NCBI GenBank assembly: GCA_019359715.1
Contig: JAHHGS010000012.1
Span: 1 to 19,597, forward strand
Origin: Aphanocapsa sp. GSE-SYN-MK-11-07L
GTDB taxonomy: Bacteria > Cyanobacteriota > Cyanobacteriia > Thermosynechococcales > Thermosynechococcaceae
Reading direction: 5' to 3'
Length of the DNA stretch: 19,597 bases
Every line of letters begins with the position of its first letter. Within the stretch, counting starts at the first letter, position 1. The position numbers and the translations under genes are program-made. The notes under the pieces are model-generated. The model had not been told where the DNA came from and made no database searches. It worked only from the letters and a program-made list of their open reading frames with translations. Shown here one piece after another: positions 1-15,867 of the stretch.

Positions 1-129
1 TTGAGTAACGATTTGACAATGGTGGGAAAGGACGATATCATCAGATATTATTTTTGTATTTCTTGGGGACAGAATACTACATTCTGCCCCCATTTTTTCT
101 GCGTTAAGCTATCTTTCAACACTTCTGTG

Positions 130-157
130 GCGGCGGGTGAACGGGGTCGTTAGGTTT
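130..157. repeat. 28-bp repeat copy A (gcggcgggtgaacggggtcgttaggttt); it overlaps the stop codon of the ADH gene and is the perfect reverse complement of 1195-1222
   Basis: The reverse complement of 130-157 equals 1195-1222 exactly (28/28). Confidence 0.8.
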
Positions 158-1130
158 TGTTGTTGTGTTCCACAACGATGACTACACTTCCTTTTTTGTG
201 CCCTTGCTCGACATAACTATGAGCCTCGGCAGTTTGTTCCAACAGATAACGCTTATCTATGACCGATTTCATTTTTCCTGCTTCAATTAGCTCTTTGAGG
301 AAAATTAGATCTTCCTTACGCTCGATCGCTACCCCACCGATCACTTTCTTGTTGCTTGTCATCGAAGTCCATAGCCCTTGAAGTATCGGGGATAGATTTA
401 TATGGACAGCTCTGAGATAGATCCCGTTTTGCTTTAGTGATCTTAGACAACCTGAAAATGGACTTTTGCCTATCGTGTCAAAAACAATATCATAGGTCTT
501 ACCGCTTTTGGTAAAGTCCTCTTTGGTGTAATCAATAACCTTGTCAGATCCCAAAGATTTCACTAATTCCAAATTTGCCGTACTACATACCCCAGTAACT
601 TCTGCCCCAAAAGATTTGGCAAGCTGCACGGCAGCCGTACCTAATGCTCCAGAAGCCCCATAGATCAAGATTTTTTGTCCATTCTGAATATTTCCCTTGT
701 CTCTCAGGAAAAGTAATGAGGTTGTTGCTCCAAAAGGAATGGCGGCGGCTTCCTCATAGGTCATATTGATAGGTTTGATTGCAACTGCTGCTGCTTCGGG
801 TAGACAGATGTACTCAGCGTTAGCACCAAGACTAGTTCCTGCTCCCGCAAAGACCTGATCACCCTCTTTGAATTGTTTTACATTTTTGCCTATTGCTTCA
901 ATTTCTCCAGCTAGCTCAGACCCTAGTATTGTGTTTTTCTTAGGTCTTTTGAAACCATAGAAAAACCTTACGGGGAATGGGTCAGACTTTCGTATGCGTA
1001 CATCTGCTGATGTTACTGTGGTCGCATATATTCTTATCAGTACTTCGTTTTCCCCAGGAGTAGGTTTTTCTACCTCCTTCAGCTGCATAACATCAGGTAA
1101 GCCGTACTCTGTGCAGATAATTGCTTTCAT
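150..1130 (-). CDS. Zinc-type alcohol dehydrogenase / NADPH:quinone oxidoreductase family (medium-chain dehydrogenase/reductase superfamily)
   Basis: 326-aa ORF. The N-terminus '[34 protein letters not shown]' is typical of the GroES-like domain of quinone-oxidoreductase-type MDRs. A glycine-rich dinucleotide-binding stretch '[19 protein letters not shown]' is present. Co-directional with the upstream small membrane protein and divergent from an HxlR regulator, a common arrangement for these redox genes. Confidence 0.85.
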
Positions 1131-1194
1131 GAATGCTCCTCAAAGATAGCTTTAGTGTAGTTCACCACACAATCTTCTATCCAATGAGTTTGCG

Positions 1195-1222
1195 AAACCT
1201 AACGACCCCGTTCACCCGCCGC
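1195..1222. repeat. 28-bp repeat copy B (aaacctaacgaccccgttcacccgccgc), in the DoxX-like/ADH intergenic region
   Basis: Perfect inverted copy of 130-157, lying about 65 nt upstream of the ADH start codon on the mRNA strand. Confidence 0.8.
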
Positions 1223-1263
1223 TAGTGAACCTTCGGCATCAGCGACCATCATTATACGGTCGG

Positions 1264-1288
1264 CGTGCAACGGGATTGTTAGGCTTTG
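1264..1288. repeat. Degenerate third copy of the same repeat (cgtgcaacgggattgttaggctttg), same orientation as copy A, abutting the stop of the DoxX-like gene
   Basis: About 85% identity to 136-159 (aacgggGtCgttaggTtttg vs aacgggAtTgttaggCtttg). Together with copy B it forms an imperfect inverted repeat with a ~42-nt spacer. Confidence 0.55.
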
Positions 1289-1738
1289 CTATGCAACAGT
1301 TTCTGGGCTTTTTACCTGCTTCTTTTCAGTGTTAATCCGATCGTCTGTTTTGCGAATAGTAAGTAAAACTAACGCCATGAGTTCTGGAACCAGTGCAGCA
1401 ATTGCTGTAAGTTTTAATGACCAAGTTTCAGATGCATTAAACAATCCCGCCACACTACTCAAGTGTGCAGACATGATATCGGTAGCGTCAATAGCAACAC
1501 ACGCTAACAAAAGCGTTTGCACGGTACTTCTATTGGCAAAAGCCACAATCACGGCAAGCACAATGTCTCTAATTGCCCAAACACGAATGATGTAAGGCAT
1601 TTGGATATTTGAATCGATTGGGATGCTAAGTTGTTCCATCAACCACAGCGGGTCAGCATATCCAACAGCACTTAGGCTAAACCGAATTAGGCACATTAGC
1701 CCTATGAGTAAAGCGATATACCAACGTTGATCTCTCAT
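1289..1738 (-). CDS. Small polytopic membrane protein, DoxX-like (putative)
   Basis: 149-aa ORF with 3-4 hydrophobic helices (LLIGLMCLIRFSLSAV; IVLAVIVAFA; LLLACVAIDATDI; LTAIAALVPELMALVLL). It sits immediately upstream of, and co-directional with, the ADH/quinone-reductase gene and divergent from HxlR, the typical DoxX context. The family assignment rests on size, topology and context only. Confidence 0.5.
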   Translation of the reverse strand: MRDQRWYIALLIGLMCLIRFSLSAVGYADPLWLMEQLSIPIDSNIQMPYIIRVWAIRDIVLAVIVAFANRSTVQTLLLACVAIDATDIMSAHLSSVAGLFNASETWSLKLTAIAALVPELMALVLLTIRKTDDRINTEKKQVKSPETVA

Positions 1739-1790
1739 GTTTACTCCTGCCGATAAATTTTCTAGAAATCTATGTAGACATTAAACCCAT

Positions 1791-1826
1791 TAGTTACTAA
1801 AGTAAAGTAGTTACCATTTAGTAACT
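1791..1826. promoter_or_regulatory. Candidate operator: three copies of TAGT(T/A)AC (1791, 1808 direct; 1820 inverted), including the inverted repeat AGTTAC-N6-GTAACT at 1809-1826
   Basis: Seen in the 117-bp divergent region between the DoxX-like/ADH operon and the HxlR gene. HxlR/MarR-type regulators bind inverted repeats in such divergent promoters. Confidence 0.3.
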
Positions 1827-1855
1827 CTATAACCTCTGAGAAACTAACAGCATCT

Positions 1856-2182
1856 ATGGCAGAATCGGAATGCACTCCCCTTGAAAAACTGCTTAACCAA
1901 ATTTCGGGGCAGTGGACGATGTACATTTTGTGGATCTTAGACACTAATGGAACCATGCGCTTCGGCGAATTAAAACGCAAGATTGATAGCATCTCACCTA
2001 AAGTCTTGACACAACGATTGCGGATGCTAGAAGAAATCGGAATTGTCTATCGTAGCTACGAATCCACGATTCCACCGCAAGTTTCTTACGAATTGACTGA
2101 ACGCGGTAAGGAACTATCTAAGCCGCTTTATGATCTCTGCGATCTTGCTTCACGCTGGTATGATGGCGAGGCTAATACGTAA
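1856..2182 (+). CDS. HxlR-family winged-helix transcriptional regulator
   Basis: 108 aa. 'CTPLEKLLNQISGQWTMYILWILDTNGTMRFGELKRKIDSISPKVLTQRLRMLEEIGIVYRSYESTIPPQVSYELTERGKEL' matches the HxlR (DUF24) pattern: a Cys near the N-terminus, a 'G.W...IL..L..G..RF.EL...I..IS.K.L...L..LE..G...R......P..V.Y.LT..G' signature, and a short size. Confidence 0.8.
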   Translation: MAESECTPLEKLLNQISGQWTMYILWILDTNGTMRFGELKRKIDSISPKVLTQRLRMLEEIGIVYRSYESTIPPQVSYELTERGKELSKPLYDLCDLASRWYDGEANT

Positions 2183-2243
2183 ACACTCACCGATCAATTC
2201 CCAAAACTATCCTCACCAGCGACTTAAGAAGCCTAACTACTAC

Positions 2244-2528
2244 TTAGACGGAATATTTCCATATAATCACCCCAACAGGAGACTTAGGCGGAAACTCATC
2301 CACCTAAATCAACTATTTAAGCAATTAGGTGGACAATTTCCTATCTAACCAACCCATTGAGGTGCTTAGATGGACTCTATCCGCCTAAGCGGCCGAGTCA
2401 GGGACTGAGATGGAATTTTGTCCGCTTTTCTGCTCAATCAGGGCGATTAGGCGGAATTAATTCCTAATAATATCCCTTTTGAGGTATTTAGACTGTAAAT
2501 TGGAGCATTGAATAATCCTTGCAATACT
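2244..2528. repeat. Degenerate tandem repeat, 7 units with period 40-42 bp. Each unit begins with the head TTAGRYGGA-N5-6-TCC (unit starts 2244, 2284, 2325, 2366, 2406, 2447, 2488)
   Basis: Heads read TTAGACGGAATATTTCC, TTAGGCGGAAACTCATCC, TTAGGTGGACAATTTCC, TTAGATGGACTCTATCC, TGAGATGGAATTTTGTCC, TTAGGCGGAATTAATTCC and TTAGACTGTAAATTGGAGC. Tails also show pairwise similarity (ttgaggt in units 2 and 5; tcaggg in units 3 and 4). Confidence 0.6.
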
Positions 2529-2651
2529 TTTTTTGGAAATCGATTAGCTTTGATTGGCAATCTCTAAAATGATTGAAGTAGTTTATGGCTGTGGTTTGAA
2601 GCTCTAAGTTTCGATCTGGTCTTAGGTTGCCAGTATTCTCCGGTTTTGATT

Positions 2652-3518
2652 ATGGTTAACTCTACTCAGCCTTGGCGATTGAGAGGGCGTGATTTTAGCT
2701 GGGGCGATCGCACCTATTTGATGGGGATTCTGAATCTGACTCCCGACAGCTTCAGCGATGGCGGGCAGTTTAATGCTCTGGCGGCGGCGGTTCCGCAGGC
2801 TAAAGCGCTGGCGGCGGCAGGGATGGATATTTTAGATCTGGGTGGACAATCGACTCGCCCCCAAGCGGTGGAAGTCTCACTTGAAACCGAGCTAGAGCGC
2901 GTCATTCCGGTGATTGAAGCAGTGCGATCCCAGGGGCTAGATGTGCCGATTTCAATTGACACCACTCGCGCTGAGGTGGCCGCACGGGCGATCGCGGCCG
3001 GAGCAGATCTGGTCAACGATGTGTCTGGGGCGATGGCTGACCCTGAAATGTTGCCAATCGTTGCCCGCTTAGGAGTGCCGATTATTCTTATGCATCGGCG
3101 GGGCAACCCGCGCACAATGCAGCAACTCACCGAGTATCAGGACTTAGTCACCGAAGTCTATGATTTTTTGGCTGACCGGGCGCAGGCCGCGATCGCGGCT
3201 GGGGTAAGGGCGATCGCGATTGATCCAGGGATTGGGTTTGCTAAAACGGCGACGCAAAGCCTGCAACTGCTGCAACAGCTCAGCCGCTTTCAAAACTTGG
3301 GCTACCCGATTTTAGTTGGGCCATCCCGCAAGAGCTTTATTGGGCAAATTCTTGATCAACCCGACCCCAAACAGCGGCTGTGGGGCACGGCGGCGGCCTG
3401 TTGCGGGGCGATCGCCGGCGGAGCAGATATCCTGCGCGTTCACGATGGAGCCGAGATGCGAGATGTCTGTCGGGTGGCAGATGCCTTATGGCGTCGGGGC
3501 CCAGTCACAAAGACTTAA
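2652..3518 (+). CDS. folP: Dihydropteroate synthase
   Basis: 'GILNLTPDSFSDGG', 'DILDLGGQSTRP', 'ISIDT', 'NDVSG' and 'GPSRKSFIG' are the conserved DHPS/pterin-binding motifs. The ORF track opens at a TTG at 2646. The first ATG is at 2652. Confidence 0.9.
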   Translation: MVNSTQPWRLRGRDFSWGDRTYLMGILNLTPDSFSDGGQFNALAAAVPQAKALAAAGMDILDLGGQSTRPQAVEVSLETELERVIPVIEAVRSQGLDVPISIDTTRAEVAARAIAAGADLVNDVSGAMADPEMLPIVARLGVPIILMHRRGNPRTMQQLTEYQDLVTEVYDFLADRAQAAIAAGVRAIAIDPGIGFAKTATQSLQLLQQLSRFQNLGYPILVGPSRKSFIGQILDQPDPKQRLWGTAAACCGAIAGGADILRVHDGAEMRDVCRVADALWRRGPVTKT

Positions 3519-3574
3519 ATCGGGGTTGTAGTCTAAGCAAATTAGTTGCTAATATACATAAGCTTGCCAATCGT

Positions 3575-3646
3575 TGGGGCGTCGCCAAGTGGTAAGGCAG
3601 CTGGTTTTGGTCCAGCCATTCAGAGGTTCGAATCCTTTCGCCCCAG
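3575..3646 (+). tRNA. tRNA-Gln (anticodon UUG)
   Basis: Hand-folded cloverleaf. Acceptor TGGGGCG pairs with CGCCCCA. D-stem is GCC/GGC. Anticodon stem GCTGG/CCAGC carries the loop TT-TTG-GT. Variable loop is CATTC. T-arm is AGAGG-TTCGAAT-CCTTT. Discriminator is G, and CCA is not encoded. Length 72 nt. Confidence 0.85.
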
Positions 3647-3656
3647 TTATCTCATC
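3645..3656. repeat. Left copy of the 12-bp direct repeat AGTTATCTCATC (overlaps the last acceptor base and the discriminator of tRNA-Gln)
   Basis: Exact 12/12 match to 5831-5842. Confidence 0.6.
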
Positions 3657-3701
3657 AGCAGCAGATATGAAATTCTTCATCTTGCTGAAGAGTCATTCTT
3701 A

Positions 3702-4037
3702 ATGAACCATCCTAAAGAACAACCAATCTTCGAGCGCGGAAGCGGGAATGTTTTTGCAGATCTTGGTTTAGACGATGCGGATGAATTGTTCGCGCGCTCA
3801 CAGATTGGCTTTCAAGTTTGGAAAATTCTCAAAAGCATGAATCTTAAACAACGGGAAATCGCCCACCTCTTAGACATCAAACAACCGGAAGTGTCTCATC
3901 TGATGAATGGAGAGTTTAGCCGTTTCAGTGAAGGGAAGCTGCTGAATTTTCTAAAGCGGCTCGATCGCGAGGTCATTATTCAAATCTATGCTGTCAGCGA
4001 AGGTCAACGCCAGCCCGAAGCAACGCTGACCTTATAA
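3702..4037 (+). CDS. XRE-family helix-turn-helix DNA-binding protein (repressor/antitoxin-like)
   Basis: 'IGFQVWKILKSMNLKQREIAHLLDIKQPEVSHLMNGEFSRFSEGKLLNFLKRLDREVIIQI' is a canonical XRE/HTH_37-type HTH with a 'LG.DV.I' tail. The tracked ORF (3546) overlaps the tRNA, so the start was reset to the ATG at 3702. Confidence 0.6.
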   Translation: MNHPKEQPIFERGSGNVFADLGLDDADELFARSQIGFQVWKILKSMNLKQREIAHLLDIKQPEVSHLMNGEFSRFSEGKLLNFLKRLDREVIIQIYAVSEGQRQPEATLTL

Positions 4038-4785: not shown

Positions 4786-5825
4786 TGCCAGAAGTTTACA
4801 TTACCTCGAAAAAGCTGATTGAGACTCTAAACATTAACAGTCGAGAATTGCTCAATTTGGAAGAATTTATTGATGCTGACCCAGATGATGAATGGGAGCT
4901 GAACGAAGGGAAAGATTACAAAGTGGTCAATGATCTTGGGCTGCGTGAGTACACCGAGACCGGAGCTTTCGCGATCGCCGGATGTTTAGAGCACCAAAGG
5001 TCAGCACAGAAAGGTTGGTTTCAAAAACTGATTCAGAAGCTGATCCAAACGACTAAAGGCGATATCCGTAAAGTCTTTGTGCAACAGAAGATTCTCAATA
5101 ATTCTTCTTCGCTTGTTCAGAATAACGATCTATATTTTCTATCGACGGCAGATGTCGTTGCTATTTTTGAGACTCGTCCCGATTACCTACGAAAAATATC
5201 CGAACTGGCTAAGCGCAGCGATAAGACAATTCTGGTCAAAAATGAAGATTACCTAGATTTAATGGACAAGGGAATTTATTACTCGCTTTCAGGACTAGTA
5301 AAGCTGGCTAAAGTGTTTGCTCAAGAACTGACTCAGAAAAATCGCCGCATTTGGTGTGGGGATGTAGGAGAGAACATCAATATTTATGTGAAAGACATTC
5401 TGAAACAAATTGAGTCAAGGAATGATGCAATTGAAAATGCAATCAAGCAAGCTAAAACCAAGGCAGGTAGGAAGTGCCAGGTTACAGGGGTTAAGGGAGA
5501 TAAGATTCAGAAAGTTCCTATGGCTGGTCATCACCTTTACTCCAAGGCAGAATATCCTCACTTGGCGGCTTGTGTAGACAACATTATTTGCATTGCCAAT
5601 GATCTCCACAACGATTTTCATCAGTATATGGGTGGTTTTGATAAGCCCTGCACACTGGATGACTTTGTGACTTTTATCAAGTGTTACTATCCAGAGCAAA
5701 CAGCCGTACTCACTTGGTTACAGGCAAAGAAACTGATCTTAGGCACTCCTCAACAAGATATTACCAAGCATGTGCTTCAGTTGTCCTGGCCAATTCCGCA
5801 GCTAGCACTCCCGCCTGCCCAGTAA
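4785..5825 (+). CDS. Protein with a C-terminal HNH-like nuclease motif (zinc-finger cysteines partly lost) and an unknown N-terminal region
   Basis: 346 aa. 'RKCQVTGVKGDKIQKVPMAGHHLYSKAEYPHLAACVDNIICIANDLHNDFH' fits the HNH consensus C..(C/T)G...HH..P.....N.I.(L)C...H..FH. The N-terminal roughly 60 aa ('YITSKKLIETLNINSRELLNLEEF') may be a small HTH-like domain. Translationally coupled to the J-domain gene. Confidence 0.6.
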   Translation: MPEVYITSKKLIETLNINSRELLNLEEFIDADPDDEWELNEGKDYKVVNDLGLREYTETGAFAIAGCLEHQRSAQKGWFQKLIQKLIQTTKGDIRKVFVQQKILNNSSSLVQNNDLYFLSTADVVAIFETRPDYLRKISELAKRSDKTILVKNEDYLDLMDKGIYYSLSGLVKLAKVFAQELTQKNRRIWCGDVGENINIYVKDILKQIESRNDAIENAIKQAKTKAGRKCQVTGVKGDKIQKVPMAGHHLYSKAEYPHLAACVDNIICIANDLHNDFHQYMGGFDKPCTLDDFVTFIKCYYPEQTAVLTWLQAKKLILGTPQQDITKHVLQLSWPIPQLALPPAQ

Positions 5826-5855: not shown

Positions 5856-6446
5856 TTACGGAGACAAATAGCTGCGCCAGACTCCGACCAGTTGGGCTTG
5901 AATTTGGGGGGTTGAAATAGCGATCGCCGCTAGTTCAGCCGCGATCGGTTGGAGGGTTTGCTGCTTGCCGCTGCGAGTATAGTAGCCCAGCAACGGGCCA
6001 GCATCAGCAATTTGAGCTGTAATCAGGGCGCCGTTGGTCAGCTTGGCGGGGGCAGGCTGCATAATTAGTGCATCACCGTTTTGAATCAGGATAGATTGGA
6101 GCGCATCGCCCTCAACTTTTAAGACAAAGCAATTGGATTGGGCAGACAGGCGATCCAATTGCAGCCATTCTGTTGGGGCGTATTCGCGTACCCAACCTTG
6201 CGCCGCGATCGCTCCTGTGTAGGGAATTCCAGTTGGGTGCAAAATTCGCAGAGTGCGGGCCTGCCCTTGCTGCCAGTTGATGTAGCCCTTGTTTTTGAGG
6301 TGTTCTAGCCGGCTCTGGACGGGGGCAGGCGACTTTAAGCCCATTGCTTGCATCATTTGCCGGATTGACGGGGCATGGCGATGTTGCCCAATGTAGTCGA
6401 CTAGCCAGTCGTAGAGTTGCTTTTGGACAGGGCTGAGAGAAGGCAT
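5856..6446 (-). CDS. lexA: LexA-like transcriptional repressor (winged-helix N-domain plus S24-fold C-domain). The catalytic Ser and Lys are apparently not conserved
   Basis: 196 aa. The N-terminus 'LSPVQKQLYDWLVDYIGQHRHAPSIRQMMQAMGLKSPAPVQSRLEHLKNKGYI' is a LexA DNA-binding domain. The C-terminus 'FVLKVEGDALQSILIQNGDALIM' aligns gap-free with E. coli '[23 protein letters not shown]', which places Ala where Ser119 sits. Confidence 0.7.
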   Translation of the reverse strand: MPSLSPVQKQLYDWLVDYIGQHRHAPSIRQMMQAMGLKSPAPVQSRLEHLKNKGYINWQQGQARTLRILHPTGIPYTGAIAAQGWVREYAPTEWLQLDRLSAQSNCFVLKVEGDALQSILIQNGDALIMQPAPAKLTNGALITAQIADAGPLLGYYTRSGKQQTLQPIAAELAAIAISTPQIQAQLVGVWRSYLSP

Positions 6447-9559: not shown

Positions 9560-10288
9560 TTGCCGCTGGTCAGTAGTTGCAGCTTACTGCTGGTGATGCT
9601 GCTCTTTAATACTGCCCAAGTTGCGCTTCAGTTCTGGCGACCCAAACCGGAGTTGGCGGCAATTCAGCAACTCAGTCAGTTTGAACTACCGAAGATCTGG
9701 CAGGATGGCTGGCAGCTTGTCCAAACTCCTTGGCTGCTTGGTCTAGGCTTGGTTCTCGTCGTTGGGTTATTGATCTATCCGCTGCTGGCTACTCGCGCGA
9801 TCGCTGCTTTTCTTAGCCTTGCCCTTGCCCTGACTGGAATCGGGCATTGGACAACCCTGCTTAAATTTTGGGCGGCTACTCCCTTTGGTAAGACCGAACC
9901 GCTATTTGGACAAGATATTGGCTTTTACATCTTTACGCTGCCGTTCTGGCAGCTCTGGCAATTCTGGCTAGTGGCGATGGTGGTTGGCAGTTTTTTGTCG
10001 ATTAGCCTCATTTATTTGCTCTCAGCCGATAGTTTGAGTCAGGGCTATTTTCCTGGCTTTAGCCAACCGCAGCGACGGCATCTGCAAGGGTTGGGAGCGG
10101 CTTTAATGCTGGCGATCGCCCTCAGCTATTGGCTGGGTCGCTATGAGTTACTGTACGCGAATCGCGGCGTTACCTTTGGAGCTGGCTACACCGATGCCAC
10201 CATTACACTGCCACTGTTTAATGCTTTGGCGGCGATCGCCCTGCTGCTTGCAGTTCTGCTCTGCCGTCCCAAAGGGAATCGCGGATGA
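9560..10288 (+). CDS. UPF0182-family membrane protein, N-terminal multi-TM portion (TTG start; the gene appears split)
   Basis: Motifs '[14 protein letters not shown]' and '[20 protein letters not shown]' are characteristic of UPF0182. The ORF ends in a TGA that overlaps the ATG of the next ORF. Confidence 0.7.
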
Positions 10289-12138
10289 CGACCTATCCTG
10301 GCCCAGCTTGGCTTTGGCTTGGCTTGATCGGGTTCAGCTTTGCCGCCACCCTGCTCGGCCCACTGCTGCCGATTGCGATCCAAACTCTGCGGGTTCAACC
10401 CAACGAGCTAGAGCGAGAATTACCCTATCTTCAGCGCACAATTGAGTACACCCGTCAGGCCTACGGTTTAGGGGCAATCCGGGCCAGAGCTTTTAATCCG
10501 CAGCCTGACCTCAACTATGCCAGCATTCAAGCTAACGATCTAACCATTCGCAACATCCGGCTTTGGGATAGCCGCCCTTTGCTAGAAACGAATCGTCAAC
10601 TCCAGCAACTACGCCCTTACTACAGCTTTCCCAACGCTTTTATTGACCGTTACGCCCTGCAAAGCCCGGATGCCCCACCTGAAAAACGGCAGGTGTTTTT
10701 GTCAGCTCGTGAGCTTGATTTTAACACCGTGCCTCAAGCGGCTCAAACCTGGGTCAACAAACGGCTGATCTATACTCACGGTTACGGATTCACGATGAGT
10801 CCAGTCAACACAGTTGGCGAAGGGGGACTGCCCACCTACTTTGTCAAAGATATTGGCACCGGTAAATCGGGGGGAAACTTACTCACCTCCAGCCCTCAAA
10901 TTGCCGCTAGTATCCCGATTGGTGCCCCACGAATTTACTTTGGACAACTGACGGAACCCTATGTGATTGCGCCTTCGCGAGTGCCAGAACTCGATTATCC
11001 GAGCGGAAATGATAATGTTTACAACCACTATAGCGGGCAGGGTGGGGTTGGACTCCAGGCACTCTGGCGGCGGTTAGTCTTTGCCCTCTATCTGCGAGAC
11101 TGGCAACTGCTGCTTACTCCCAATTTGACCCCTGACAGCCAGATTCTGCTGCGGCGGCAAATTGAACAGCGAGTCTGGGTGATCGCTCCTTTTTTATCCC
11201 TCGACCAAGAACCCTATCTGGTGGTGGCGGACACCCACTCTTCCGCCGGAATTCAGCCTGCTGAACCCCAGGAAACCAATCATCTCTACTGGATCATCGA
11301 TGCTTACACAATGAGCAATCACTATCCCTACGCCGATCCAGAAGCAGATGCGTTCAACTACATCCGTAACTCGGTCAAGGTCGTAGTTGATGCCTACACG
11401 GGCACTGTTGATTTCTACGCTGTTGACCCCCAAGACCCGATCTTGCAAACCTGGCAACGAGTTTTTCCAGGCATGTTTCAACCTTTAGCCGCGATGCCAG
11501 CCGAGCTTTACCAGCATACCCGCTACCCAAAAGACCTGTTTCAAGTCCAAGCTCACCGTTTGCTTAAGTACCACATGACTGATCCGGTGGTCTTCTATAA
11601 CCAGGAAGACCAGTGGCAGTTGCCGACTGAAATTTACGATGGTCAACTCCAGCAGGTTGCGTCTTACTACCTGATTATGAAGCTGCTGGAAGGAGCACAG
11701 GAAGAATTTATTCTGCTCTATCCGTTTACTCCCCTCAATCGCCCCAATTTAATTGCCTGGTTGGCCGCCCGCTCTGATGGCGAAAATTATGGCAAGCTAG
11801 TGCTTTATCAATTTCCTAAGCAAGAGCTGATCTTTGGCCCAGAACAGCTTGAAGCCCGAATTAACCAAGACCCGGCGATTTCAGAAAAAATCTCGCTTTG
11901 GAACCGCGACGGTTCGCGTTTGATTCAAGGCAATTTATTGGTAATTCCCCTAGAGCGATCGCTGCTTTACGTTGAGCCGTTTTATTTAAAGGCTGAGCAA
12001 AATAGTCTACCTACCTTGATTCGGGTTGTTGTCATGTATCAAGACAAAATTGTGATGGCAGAAACGCTAAATCTGGCTTTGGAACAGACCTTTCCAGCCC
12101 CGACTCAAAGTAAAACCAAGCCGCTGATTCCTGAGTAG
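10285..12138 (+). CDS. UPF0182-family protein, C-terminal portion
   Basis: '[26 protein letters not shown]' and '[20 protein letters not shown]' are UPF0182 signatures. Confidence 0.75.
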
Positions 12139-13542: not shown

Positions 13543-15867
13543 TCAGCGACTTGCCGCAGGTAACAGCAGCGTTGCTTCGATTTGCTGGCGAATTTCAGGG
13601 TTGATCATGCAACCATCGCTCTGCAAGCAGTCCACCAAGAGACGAGTAGCATTGTAATACTGTTTGAGCAGGTGTTGCTCTTGGGAACTAAATTGCCACT
13701 GCTGACCAATATGATGACGGGTCTTGGCCACTTGTCTAGCCTGATCGGCAACTTGCTTCACTTTTTCATCGTTGGCTGACTCTCCTTTCAGACGCTGTAA
13801 AAGTGTTTTCAAGGTCTGTTGCTGATCGGTTTCTAGTTTCTGGGAGTCAAGGGCAATTTTGATCGCAATCAGCATCACGGCATTGGCAGAGGCAGCCGCA
13901 ACAATTTTTGCCATTGGGTCAGTCAGGTTTGCATCATAGTCTTGGGCGATCGCGATCGCATCTCTTAAACTCACTCCCTCCAGCATCCGGGTCAGGAAAC
14001 TCGCACAGACCAAGAGATTGACCGTTCGATCCAAACTCAACGCCACCGCCCGATTTTCGTCAATATCAAAATCAATATCAAAATAAAAGGCCCGCACCGC
14101 AGCCGGCTTAAAGCAGGCGAATTCTGGGGCAGCGGCCCGATCGCGCACAAAAGCCAGGAACTGTTGCAGGCGATCAGAGGCAGCCAAGAGCTGATCAATC
14201 ACCTGCTGCATTGGCAACAGCAGCAACGCAGCATCTCGCAGCATTTCCGTCGTCAGCAAGAAGACTTCTCGCCAGCGTTTTTCAGTCGAATAAGCGACGA
14301 GTTCTTCCAAAGTTGCGGCTAAGGCAGGGCGATTAAAAACGATATCTCTGGCCGCAAAGTACTCATGAAAGGTGAGATGAGAAAACGAGTAAATTCCCTT
14401 CGCCCGCTCGATCAACAGCCCATGCTGGGCCTCAATTGAGTGCAGGATGGCTTCGCTATCGAGCTGTAAGGCATCATCATCAAGGTTGGTTTGAGCAAAA
14501 TTGCGAATGTAGTCGATAATGTACGCTTCCACAACCGTCTGCTTAAAAAAATAGTCTTTTTGTTGGAAGGTAATGAAGGCAATATAACTAAGCAAATCCT
14601 TTTTACGCTGATGGGATAGTTTTTGATAAACCTGATCGCGGTGAATGCCGCGTTTGGCATCCCACTTTTTGAGCAGGGCATCAATCCCTTCCTGATATAG
14701 CTCAGAGCGGTTGCTGGGACAATCGCCTGACTCTTCAAAGGCCAAACAGACGAGGGTGAGCAGCAGGGGGCTAATCGTGAGCTGTTTAATCCGGGGATTT
14801 TGATCCAGGTGCTTGAGAAACGTGTCTGCCCGGATTGGCTGATGTTGAAACCACTTGGTCGCAAAAACAGCAATTTGATCTTGGTTGAAATCGGCAACCT
14901 CCACCTCAGTAAACTTTTCAAAGGTATAGTCCCAGGCGGCAATCCGACAGGTAATTAGGAACTGATTATTCCAGAATTGCTCTGAGAAATCGCTGATTTC
15001 TTTAATCACCCGCTGATAGTCTTCCGCCCTCACTTCATCTAAACCGTCCAGCAGCACTAAGGCTTTCCCTTGATCAAAAACCTGATAAAACTCAGCCGTC
15101 AACTGTTCTGGAATGAATGCTGCATCCTTGAGCAGGTAGGAGTCGCGATCGCTGATGTATTCCAGCAGGCTGGGTTCAGCTTCCGCTTCAGCAAAGTCTT
15201 TTAAGGTGACAAAGACAGGCAAACGGTCTGGCTCAAACTTGCCTTGATTAGACTGAATCGCCAGGTACTTGAGAAAGGTGGTTTTGCCCGCTCCCGGTTT
15301 GCCCAAAATAATCAGCTTTTTATACTTTTCAACTGCCTCTAAGCCTGAGATCGATTCCTGGACGATTTGCCCCAAGCCAAACCGCTCAAAATTTTCTGAA
15401 TCACAGCTTTGCAGTAACTGAGCAATTCGCTTGTGCCTGCGCCCGGTAATTTGCTCCAGGATATTGACGTGGGTATACAGCTCATTCACCTCAATTGGGT
15501 GAGACATATCCAGGACGCGGATGGTGCCACACCGCTCTCGCAGGCTGGCGTACGCTTGCTGGCGGAGGTTCTGGACGATCGCAGCTAGTCCGGAATCCTG
15601 ACCGGACAAGCTCAGTTTTACGGCCGTTGGTTTTAAAGCGGCGGGGGCAAGCAGGTCAGCAATTTCTTGCCAGTTTAAGCCCAGCCGATCGCAGATCTGG
15701 ATGAACAGGGACTGAGCGATCGCTGCCCCCTTAAAGAAATTGGTGATCGGCTGCCGACTGCACCCGATCAAAGCGCTTAAGTCTTTTTGCGTCCAGCCTG
15801 CCCTAGTTAAAGCTTGTTTGGCAATCTGAACTCCGTCTAATGATGCTTTTAAGGAGGGCTTGGCCAT
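13543..15867 (-). CDS. STAND NTPase: N-terminal XRE-like HTH, central NACHT domain, C-terminal helical region
   Basis: 774 aa. The N-terminus 'GWTQKDLSALIGCSRQPITNFFKG' is an HTH. Walker A is 'ILGKPGAGKTTFLKYLA' and Walker B is 'LVLLDGLDEV'. The NACHT-typical 'RVLDMSHPIEVNELYTHVNI' precedes the P-loop. About 330 aa of helical C-terminus carries no WD40 or TPR repeats. Confidence 0.85.
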   Translation of the reverse strand: MAKPSLKASLDGVQIAKQALTRAGWTQKDLSALIGCSRQPITNFFKGAAIAQSLFIQICDRLGLNWQEIADLLAPAALKPTAVKLSLSGQDSGLAAIVQNLRQQAYASLRERCGTIRVLDMSHPIEVNELYTHVNILEQITGRRHKRIAQLLQSCDSENFERFGLGQIVQESISGLEAVEKYKKLIILGKPGAGKTTFLKYLAIQSNQGKFEPDRLPVFVTLKDFAEAEAEPSLLEYISDRDSYLLKDAAFIPEQLTAEFYQVFDQGKALVLLDGLDEVRAEDYQRVIKEISDFSEQFWNNQFLITCRIAAWDYTFEKFTEVEVADFNQDQIAVFATKWFQHQPIRADTFLKHLDQNPRIKQLTISPLLLTLVCLAFEESGDCPSNRSELYQEGIDALLKKWDAKRGIHRDQVYQKLSHQRKKDLLSYIAFITFQQKDYFFKQTVVEAYIIDYIRNFAQTNLDDDALQLDSEAILHSIEAQHGLLIERAKGIYSFSHLTFHEYFAARDIVFNRPALAATLEELVAYSTEKRWREVFLLTTEMLRDAALLLLPMQQVIDQLLAASDRLQQFLAFVRDRAAAPEFACFKPAAVRAFYFDIDFDIDENRAVALSLDRTVNLLVCASFLTRMLEGVSLRDAIAIAQDYDANLTDPMAKIVAAASANAVMLIAIKIALDSQKLETDQQQTLKTLLQRLKGESANDEKVKQVADQARQVAKTRHHIGQQWQFSSQEQHLLKQYYNATRLLVDCLQSDGCMINPEIRQQIEATLLLPAASR

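Follow-up and report, generated by a model that had tools for sequence, protein, structure and literature searches.

Positions 130 to 2470 of the window, which is the whole 19,597-nt contig of the metagenome-assembled genome (MAG) Aphanocapsa sp. GSE-SYN-MK-11-07L, are very probably the integrase-less remnant of a cyanobacterial chromosomal integron, in which two of three related repeat copies (B and C) form an attC recombination site and an ADH gene is a captured cassette. Read on the minus strand, the element would run from an attI site (2470-2237) into a first cassette that ends in attC (1284-1197), and from there into the ADH cassette (1202-150). The remaining repeat, copy A, would be composed of the R'' box of the ADH cassette, AAACCTAAC, and 20 nt of an inverted consensus L' arm, the latter replacing the attC site that the same cassette keeps elsewhere. 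The perfect 28-nt inverted repeat formed by copies A and B can thus be understood as a by-product of integron site architecture and of one aberrant joining at the R'' box; ordinary integron anatomy explains a striking repeat, and no new RNA or transposon mechanism is needed.

The repeat itself is as the initial annotation had described it in most respects. Copy A (130-157, plus strand) is the exact reverse complement of copy B (1195-1222), an arrangement with no comparable pair in 200 shuffles, and the similarity stretches to 35 nt at 91% (123-157 / 1195-1229). Copy A covers the ADH stop codon (TAA, 150-152), and 64 nt separate copy B from the ADH start (1130) downstream of it, where about 65 nt had been claimed. 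The third copy, C, is likewise real and forms a hairpin with copy B, but it had been placed over the 3' end of the upstream open reading frame (ORF) of 149 aa; the whole arm is 1259-1284 (core 1269-1283, with 2 mismatches in 15) and lies 4 nt past the stop of that ORF (TAG, 1289-1291). The 'DoxX-like' label given to the same ORF found no support in Pfam or NCBIfam, neither of which returned a match. Copies B and C make up the arms of a single imperfect hairpin of 88 nt (1197-1284), with a DNA folding energy of -20.9/-21.4 kcal/mol (z about -2.9). The segment around them stands apart in composition, with no HIP1 motif (GCGATCGC) in 1-2703 and 23 occurrences in the remaining window, and with 42.3% GC in 1-2640 versus 50.1% elsewhere; the earlier view of an AT-rich, HIP1-free stretch of acquired DNA is borne out by these counts.

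attC sites act as single-stranded DNA, the bottom strand folding into an imperfect hairpin with extrahelical bases; the integron integrase cuts the AAC triplet, equivalent to G|TT on the top strand, and units of ORF plus attC are excised and inserted whole. The B-C hairpin has this design. On the minus strand it is made up, in order, of an R'' box GCCTAAC (1284-1278), L'', a variable centre, L' (1222-1204) and an R' box GTTAGGT (1203-1197), which gives it the RYYYAAC and GTTRRRY ends of attC and a G|TT crossover at 1203|1202, with copy B as the L'-R' arm. The plus (bottom) strand folds into an imperfect hairpin with a variable terminal structure and three 1-nt bulges, 1260 (T), 1264 (C) and 1268 (C), in the arm opposite AAC. 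A covariance model (CM), R1, built from 67 aligned units of the family described below, scores 1197-1284 at 96.6 bits (E 3.7e-31) on the minus strand versus 23.6 bits on the plus strand, so that the polarity of the site is clear. Its folding and its recombination by IntI as single-stranded DNA are predictions from this structure. The site resembles well-studied ones such as VCR2 and attCoxa2 in its RYYYAAC...GTTRRRY ends, imperfect palindrome and variable centre, and in having three single extrahelical bases at 4-nt spacing in the arm opposite AAC; VCR2 has G16/T20/T24, and attCoxa2 also has three, with A20 at position 20 (PMC5027507). It differs from both in having the arms of a cyanobacterial sequence subfamily, which vary unusually little.

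This subfamily is large. A degenerate pattern searched in one genome per species recovered the complete unit of about 88 nt, both arms and the variable centre included, from Nostoc sp. CHAB 5715, Tolypothrix brevis and two cyanobacterial MAGs, together with a shorter relative in a Pirellulaceae MAG, and the 21-nt arm pattern matched more than 119 metagenome contigs. Comparisons between loci drew on about 130 fetched loci, cited here by L numbers. On the strand corresponding to the window's minus strand the family consensus reads ..CTAAC AAT CCCGTT G CAC A CCG A CCG, a centre that varies in sequence and length, then CGG CGG GTG AACGGG GTC GTTAG.., with the three 1-nt bulges at columns 24, 28 and 32. 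Across the 67 units the AAC and GTT columns are 94-100% conserved, and the adjacent positions vary. RNAalifold applied to this alignment gave a weaker, shifted helix and was replaced by a manual structure, which pairs 88.9% of cells with no significant covariation. Because the arms hardly vary, the pairing rests on their conservation and on analogy with attC.

The context of the units is that of integron cassette arrays. With R1 and nhmmer, up to 8 units were found on one strand of a metagenome locus, 0.6-2.7 kb apart (for example L032, with 8 units, L061, L075, L096, L057 and L037), and the ORFs between them are co-oriented with the units and have their stops at or inside R'' (the 5' box). 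The unit of the window, like those of L032, L061, L075, L096, L110 and L034, stands just 3' of a co-oriented ORF, and in all 43 other multi-site loci every unit lies on a single strand. Family units adjoin integron integrases in L110 (1992-2957, TIGR02249, 467 bits) and L009 (1253-2230, 452 bits), both above the cutoff of 265 bits; L061 and L101 give additional intI matches, and L019 ends in the 5' part of an intI gene. The association with both IntI and attI thus holds for the family, while the window itself has attI only. These are features of attC sites in general, which lie directly 3' of a co-oriented ORF with the stop codon in or beside R'', exchange at G|TT, and form same-strand arrays beside intI and attI.

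The point of exchange can be placed from comparative evidence. Among pairs of loci that share an attC centre, 16 share the ORF-side flank only and none the 3' flank only, as would be the case if attC moves with the upstream ORF; 100 distinct sequences come after ...GGGGTCG|TT; and the outer stem pairs show no covariation within a unit, as they should not if whatever lies 3' of G|TT is already part of the following cassette. Together these observations place the exchange at the G|TT of the 3' box. They also bear on the rival reading, which the initial annotation had touched on in asking for a search for further copies, that the repeat is a dispersed family of repetitive extragenic palindromes (REP) or miniature inverted-repeat transposable elements (MITE) unrelated to integrons, with ADH merely lying between two insertions. 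The family is indeed multi-copy, many matches sit at contig ends, as they do for assembly-breaking repeats, and solitary copies occur among core genes in Tolypothrix (L006) and a cyanobacterial MAG (L005). Yet the units are strictly co-oriented in arrays at ORF 3' ends, adjoin TIGR02249 integrases and attI sites, exchange their flanks asymmetrically (16:0), and have RYYYAAC/GTTRRRY ends with no direct repeats or target-site duplications bordering them, whereas REP/MITE copies would be scattered with no set relation to ORF ends or direction, and MITEs would be bordered by such duplications. We regard this explanation as extremely unlikely, and the family as one of attC sites.

Several further properties of the family were noted along the way. 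In L082 a group II intron (3245-3938; RF02001, 130.7 bits, with RF01998 and RF00029) lies in the bottom strand of a family unit, inserted at ...AACGGGATTGT|GTACGCCC, and such bottom-strand insertion into attC is shown by the group IIC-attC introns (PMC3001079). The same intron 5' junction occurs in L081 (about 7150) and L102 (about 6960), where it is followed by a 210-aa tyrosine-recombinase ORF (L081, 7601-8233). Two integron layouts use this attC family: in L110, L061 and L019 intI is divergent, and in L009 (1030-2230) intI and the first cassette lie on one strand, with an attI-like sequence (..GCGGATCCGCCTAAGACCTG|TTAGAC) downstream of intI. In the metagenome loci, about one fifth of the distinct cassette starts that come after the invariant arm carry a GGTGGGG-like motif 12-36 nt after G|TT, often following TTAKGCCGCT..AGTTATC. 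The solitary full-length units mentioned above, L006 4548-4650 (between convergent ORFs) and L005 4463-4566 (upstream of dnaK), have no other unit and no intI within 3-4 kb, and are single attC sites that may remain from the insertion of cassettes at secondary sites. Cyanobacteria were already known to have integrons and a taxon-specific type of attC (PMC2426708, PMC4889954, PMC8352920), and an attC model exists for them (PMC8352920). What the present comparison adds is the documentation of a large cyanobacterial attC subfamily in its sequence, structure and attI architecture.

The ADH gene is the second cassette of the element. Proteins 92-96% identical to it are encoded in unrelated neighbourhoods, within an array (L129), by transposase genes (L126), among small ORFs (L127) and by a GUN4 gene (L130), which shows that a conserved quinone-reductase-like gene circulates as a cassette among cyanobacteria. 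blastn finds 93.5% DNA identity to L129 and L126, extending in the window from 1204/1205 to 142 only, and the homology begins exactly at the G|TT of copy B (1203|1202). The cassette has a 72-nt leader beginning TTAGGTTTCGC..., and in L126 and L129 it starts TTAGGTTTCGCAAACTC...; its first bases in the window, TTAGGTTT (1202-1195), are complementary to its own R'' box. At the other end, the ORF finishes AAAACCTAAC in L126, L129 and L130, with the variant AAAAACCTAGC in L127/L128, and is followed in L126, L127 and L129 by AACCGC(G/A)CTGCACCGG...GCGTCC...GAGCGCGA(A/C/T)CG|TT. The native cassette thus ends in its own diverged attC, at 48-62 bits, of which L130 retains only a degenerate version; in L129 this attC occupies 5553-5655 and has different bulges. 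The window follows the native cassette up to AAAACCTAAC, continues with GACCCCGTTCACCCGCCGC, the reverse complement of the family L' arm, and then passes into unrelated DNA, the divergence falling directly after the AAACCTAAC box. Judged from sequence, the description of the ADH gene as a captured integron gene cassette is essentially right, and the earlier suggestion of a tiny mobile cassette carrying only ADH is sound to that extent, except that the 28-nt repeats are not transposon-like termini. Lacking its own attC, the cassette is probably fixed in place.

The same comparison decides largely against a role for the repeat at the RNA level, in which the 28-nt copies flanking ADH would pair on the minus-strand transcript as an RNase III target, an attenuator or a stabilizer. 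The copies are perfectly complementary and would share one transcript if ADH is read through from upstream, and the B-C hairpin also folds as a single strand. But the other copies of the ADH cassette (92-96% protein and 91-94% DNA identity) have a normal attC in place of copy A, the inverted arm occurs in none of the 43 other multi-site loci, and each part of the repeat is already accounted for by integron site architecture. An Rfam scan of 1-3000 (E<=10) returned noise only, which also counts against it. The duplex, RNase III and attenuator proposals of the initial annotation accordingly went unsupported when the comparison with related ADH loci that it had called for was carried out, and we consider any such role very unlikely.

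If copies B and C are attC, copy A is the part of the locus that requires a separate explanation. Its 130-149 portion (GCGGCGGGTGAACGGGGTCG) is an attC half-site, inverted relative to the array, with no partner arm in the remaining 129 nt of the contig; nhmmer aligns 116-154 (plus strand) to model positions 57-95 only (E 3.8e-6), and native ADH cassettes carry a different sequence at this position. The 28-mer is accordingly composite. Eight to nine of its nucleotides (TTAGGTTT / AAACCTAA[C]) belong to the complementarity between R' and R'' that the ADH cassette has of its own and shows at every locus where it is found, and the remaining 19-20 nt are the L' arm, which is near-invariant in the subfamily, so that neither selection nor a duplication of very recent date is needed to make A and B perfectly identical. 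Among 44 loci with at least two units (43 of them independent), units on opposite strands occur only in the window and in L001, a Logan contig that carries the window's DNA. A reading of copy A as a 'compressed' complete attC (CM match at 107-163, 7.5 bits, E 3.5) was rejected because the pairs of its 5' arm are mostly G-T or mismatched and because the structure is absent from the DNA fold. For positions 1-135 the fetched loci contain no homologue. A hairpin that is strong and separate, GGGGACAGAAT-ACTAC-ATTCTGCCCC, lies at 65-92 and is followed by a T-run on the plus strand; it looks like the intrinsic terminator of a plus-strand gene to the left of the contig start, and was not listed by the simple terminator scan; the scan for promoters and terminators found nothing beyond shuffle expectation.

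The breakpoint lies inside the AAC-containing R'' box of the ADH attC, and we infer an aberrant joining event at that box, for which three routes can be envisaged. In the first (a), the integrase would have cut the ADH attC in R'' and exchanged its top strand with the bottom strand of a consensus-type attC, the remainder then being lost. In the second (b), a template switch during replication would have allowed a nascent ...AAACCTAAC to anneal to GTTAGGTTT at the cassette start, primed by the 9-nt R''/R' complementarity, and to copy about 20 nt of the neighbouring L' arm. In the third (c), the half-site would form part of an inverted attC that is complete but whose very long centre extends past the end of the contig. 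A simple inversion between attC arms was considered as well and, by reasoning only, fails to give the pure arm types observed at both junctions.

For the first route there is a parallel in top-strand (R'') recombination, which yields inverted insertion and has been seen in experiments only (Nivina et al. 2016, PMC5027507). The junction in the window lies exactly at the AAC of the ADH R'' box, joined to an inverted L' arm, and its geometry is the product expected from a top-strand x bottom-strand exchange (PMC5027507). It differs in that 20 nt of the inverted site are left and the ADH gene is not inverted with respect to the array. Such recombination ran in experiments at a rate 10^-3 to 10^-4 of the normal one, and natural integrons, whether mobile or chromosomal, are stated never to have shown its products (PMC5027507). 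A template switch over the 9 nt of R''/R' complementarity gives an identical junction. To see in the junction ADH-AAACCTAA|C-(inverted L' arm) a footprint left in nature by integrase recombination at R'' is therefore a tentative and rather doubtful suggestion; were it correct, the half-site would be a rare natural trace of wrong-strand recombination.

The third route supposes that copy A is untruncated and represents the plus-strand 3' arm of a complete inverted attC, whose long centre and 5' arm (CTAACAATCCCGTTGCAC-type) would lie beyond the contig start. Units with centres about 60-100 nt longer do exist in L035, L048 and L101, and both the contig and L001, an independent Logan contig, stop no more than 130 nt from copy A. 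The centre would nonetheless need more than 129 nt, beyond any in the family here; 1-129 is without similarity to the family and holds the separate hairpin at 65-92; and the abnormal R'' junction would still be required. We judge this unlikely. In that case ADH would be followed by an entire inverted attC and possibly by an inverted cassette. The inverted half-site is the sole unusual element of the locus, and a minor curiosity.

The attI site and the first cassette complete the element. The region at 2237-2470 is composed of about five tandem units of about 40 nt with seven TTAGRYGGA / TCCRYCTAA motifs, each unit an inverted pair of TTAGRCGGAAA / TTTCCGYCTAA-like motifs, the last ending ..TCCGTCTAAGTAGTAG|TTAGGC. 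On the minus strand it terminates in ...TTCCGTCTAAGTAGTAG|TTAGGCTTCT, that is, ...TTCCGTCTAAGTAGTAG|TTAGGC. The same design and similar sequence recur in L019, L030, L035, L061 and L103, and in L019 and L061 the attI-like region abuts the 5' end of a divergent intI, which identifies the region in the window as attI. Its tandem units are probably multiple integrase-binding sites, a putative assignment. The first cassette begins with G|TTAGGCTTCT at 2237|2236, and complementarity between the bases past the attI crossover (TTAGGCTT) and the attC's R'' box (1284-1278) delimits the cassette as 2236-1203. Array L034 holds an analogous cassette in which the HxlR gene (71% identity) is likewise reversed and other genes follow it. 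On the far side of attI, where intI would be, stands folP, a HIP1-rich core gene of 52-58% GC, and in this position it marks the edge of the acquired segment. The features are collected in the table.

Table 1. Features of the integron remnant and its border in the window. Positions are those of the window; CM R1, covariance model R1.
Feature	Position	Strand	Basis or remark
attI-like site	2237-2470	-	Motif positions; likeness to L019, L030, L035, L061, L103
Cassette 1 (reversed HxlR gene, 149-aa ORF, attC)	1203-2236	-	Pfam HxlR; start complementary to R''
HxlR-family regulator	1856-2182	+ (reversed within cassette 1)	Pfam HxlR
149-aa membrane-like ORF	1289-1738	-	Divergent from HxlR gene
Complete attC of cassette 1 (copies C and B)	1197-1284	-	CM R1, DNA fold, family alignment
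ADH gene cassette without its own attC	150-1202	-	blastn homology, Pfam / NCBIfam
ADH ORF, 326 aa, zinc-type medium-chain dehydrogenase/quinone-reductase family	150-1130	-	Pfam, NCBIfam
R'' box of ADH cassette (AAAACCTAA|C; C = 149)	150-158	-	Contains ADH stop TAA (152-150)
Solo inverted attC half-site (consensus L' arm and G of R')	130-149	+	nhmmer, CM
folP (dihydropteroate synthase), core gene	2646-3518	+	Pfam Pterin_bind, 292 bits

A number of points weigh against the interpretation of the locus as an integron remnant. No intI or intI remnant was found in the 19.6-kb window with IntI1 and the IntI of L110 as probes (IntI1 served solely as a search probe), and without intI, recombination activity at the locus cannot be assumed. 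The near-invariance of the arms means that no compensatory covariation proves their pairing, and for the 3' arm this invariance comes partly from the search pattern, though the arm is still intact in 3 of the 4 loci found via the other arm. The first bottom-strand extrahelical base is C here and G in the studied sites VCR2 and attCoxa2. The contig ends 129 nt past copy A, and routes (a), (b) and (c) all fit the half-site. Finally, a CALIN, a cluster of attC sites in which the integron integrase is missing, is defined by at least two attC sites within 4 kb with no intI nearby (PMC4889954), and the window has one complete attC (96.6 bits) and a half-site that scores 7.5 bits as a unit.

The locus is for this last reason better called a decayed integron retaining attI than a formal CALIN. 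It resembles CALIN and the single attC sites lacking integron integrases (SALIN) in having cassettes and attC without a neighbouring intI or a recognizable intI pseudogene (PMC4889954), and differs from them in that attI has been kept though intI is gone, and in having only one complete attC and an inverted half-site. It also belongs to a phylum in which chromosomal integrons (PMC2426708) and a taxon-specific attC type (attC model, PMC8352920) have already been described. The type of element is therefore known, and the locus adds another example, a well-delimited decayed chromosomal integron in a cyanobacterium with attI retained, intI gone and two cassettes.

Two observations concern the remainder of the window. 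The UPF0182 gene at 9560-12138 is split into two ORFs that overlap, 9560-10288 (matching profile positions 96-256) and 10285-12138 (matching 269-770), as would result from a frameshift, a pseudogene or an error of assembly. A 774-aa HTH-NACHT (STAND NTPase) protein and a LexA homologue are encoded at 13543-15867 and 5856-6446, respectively.

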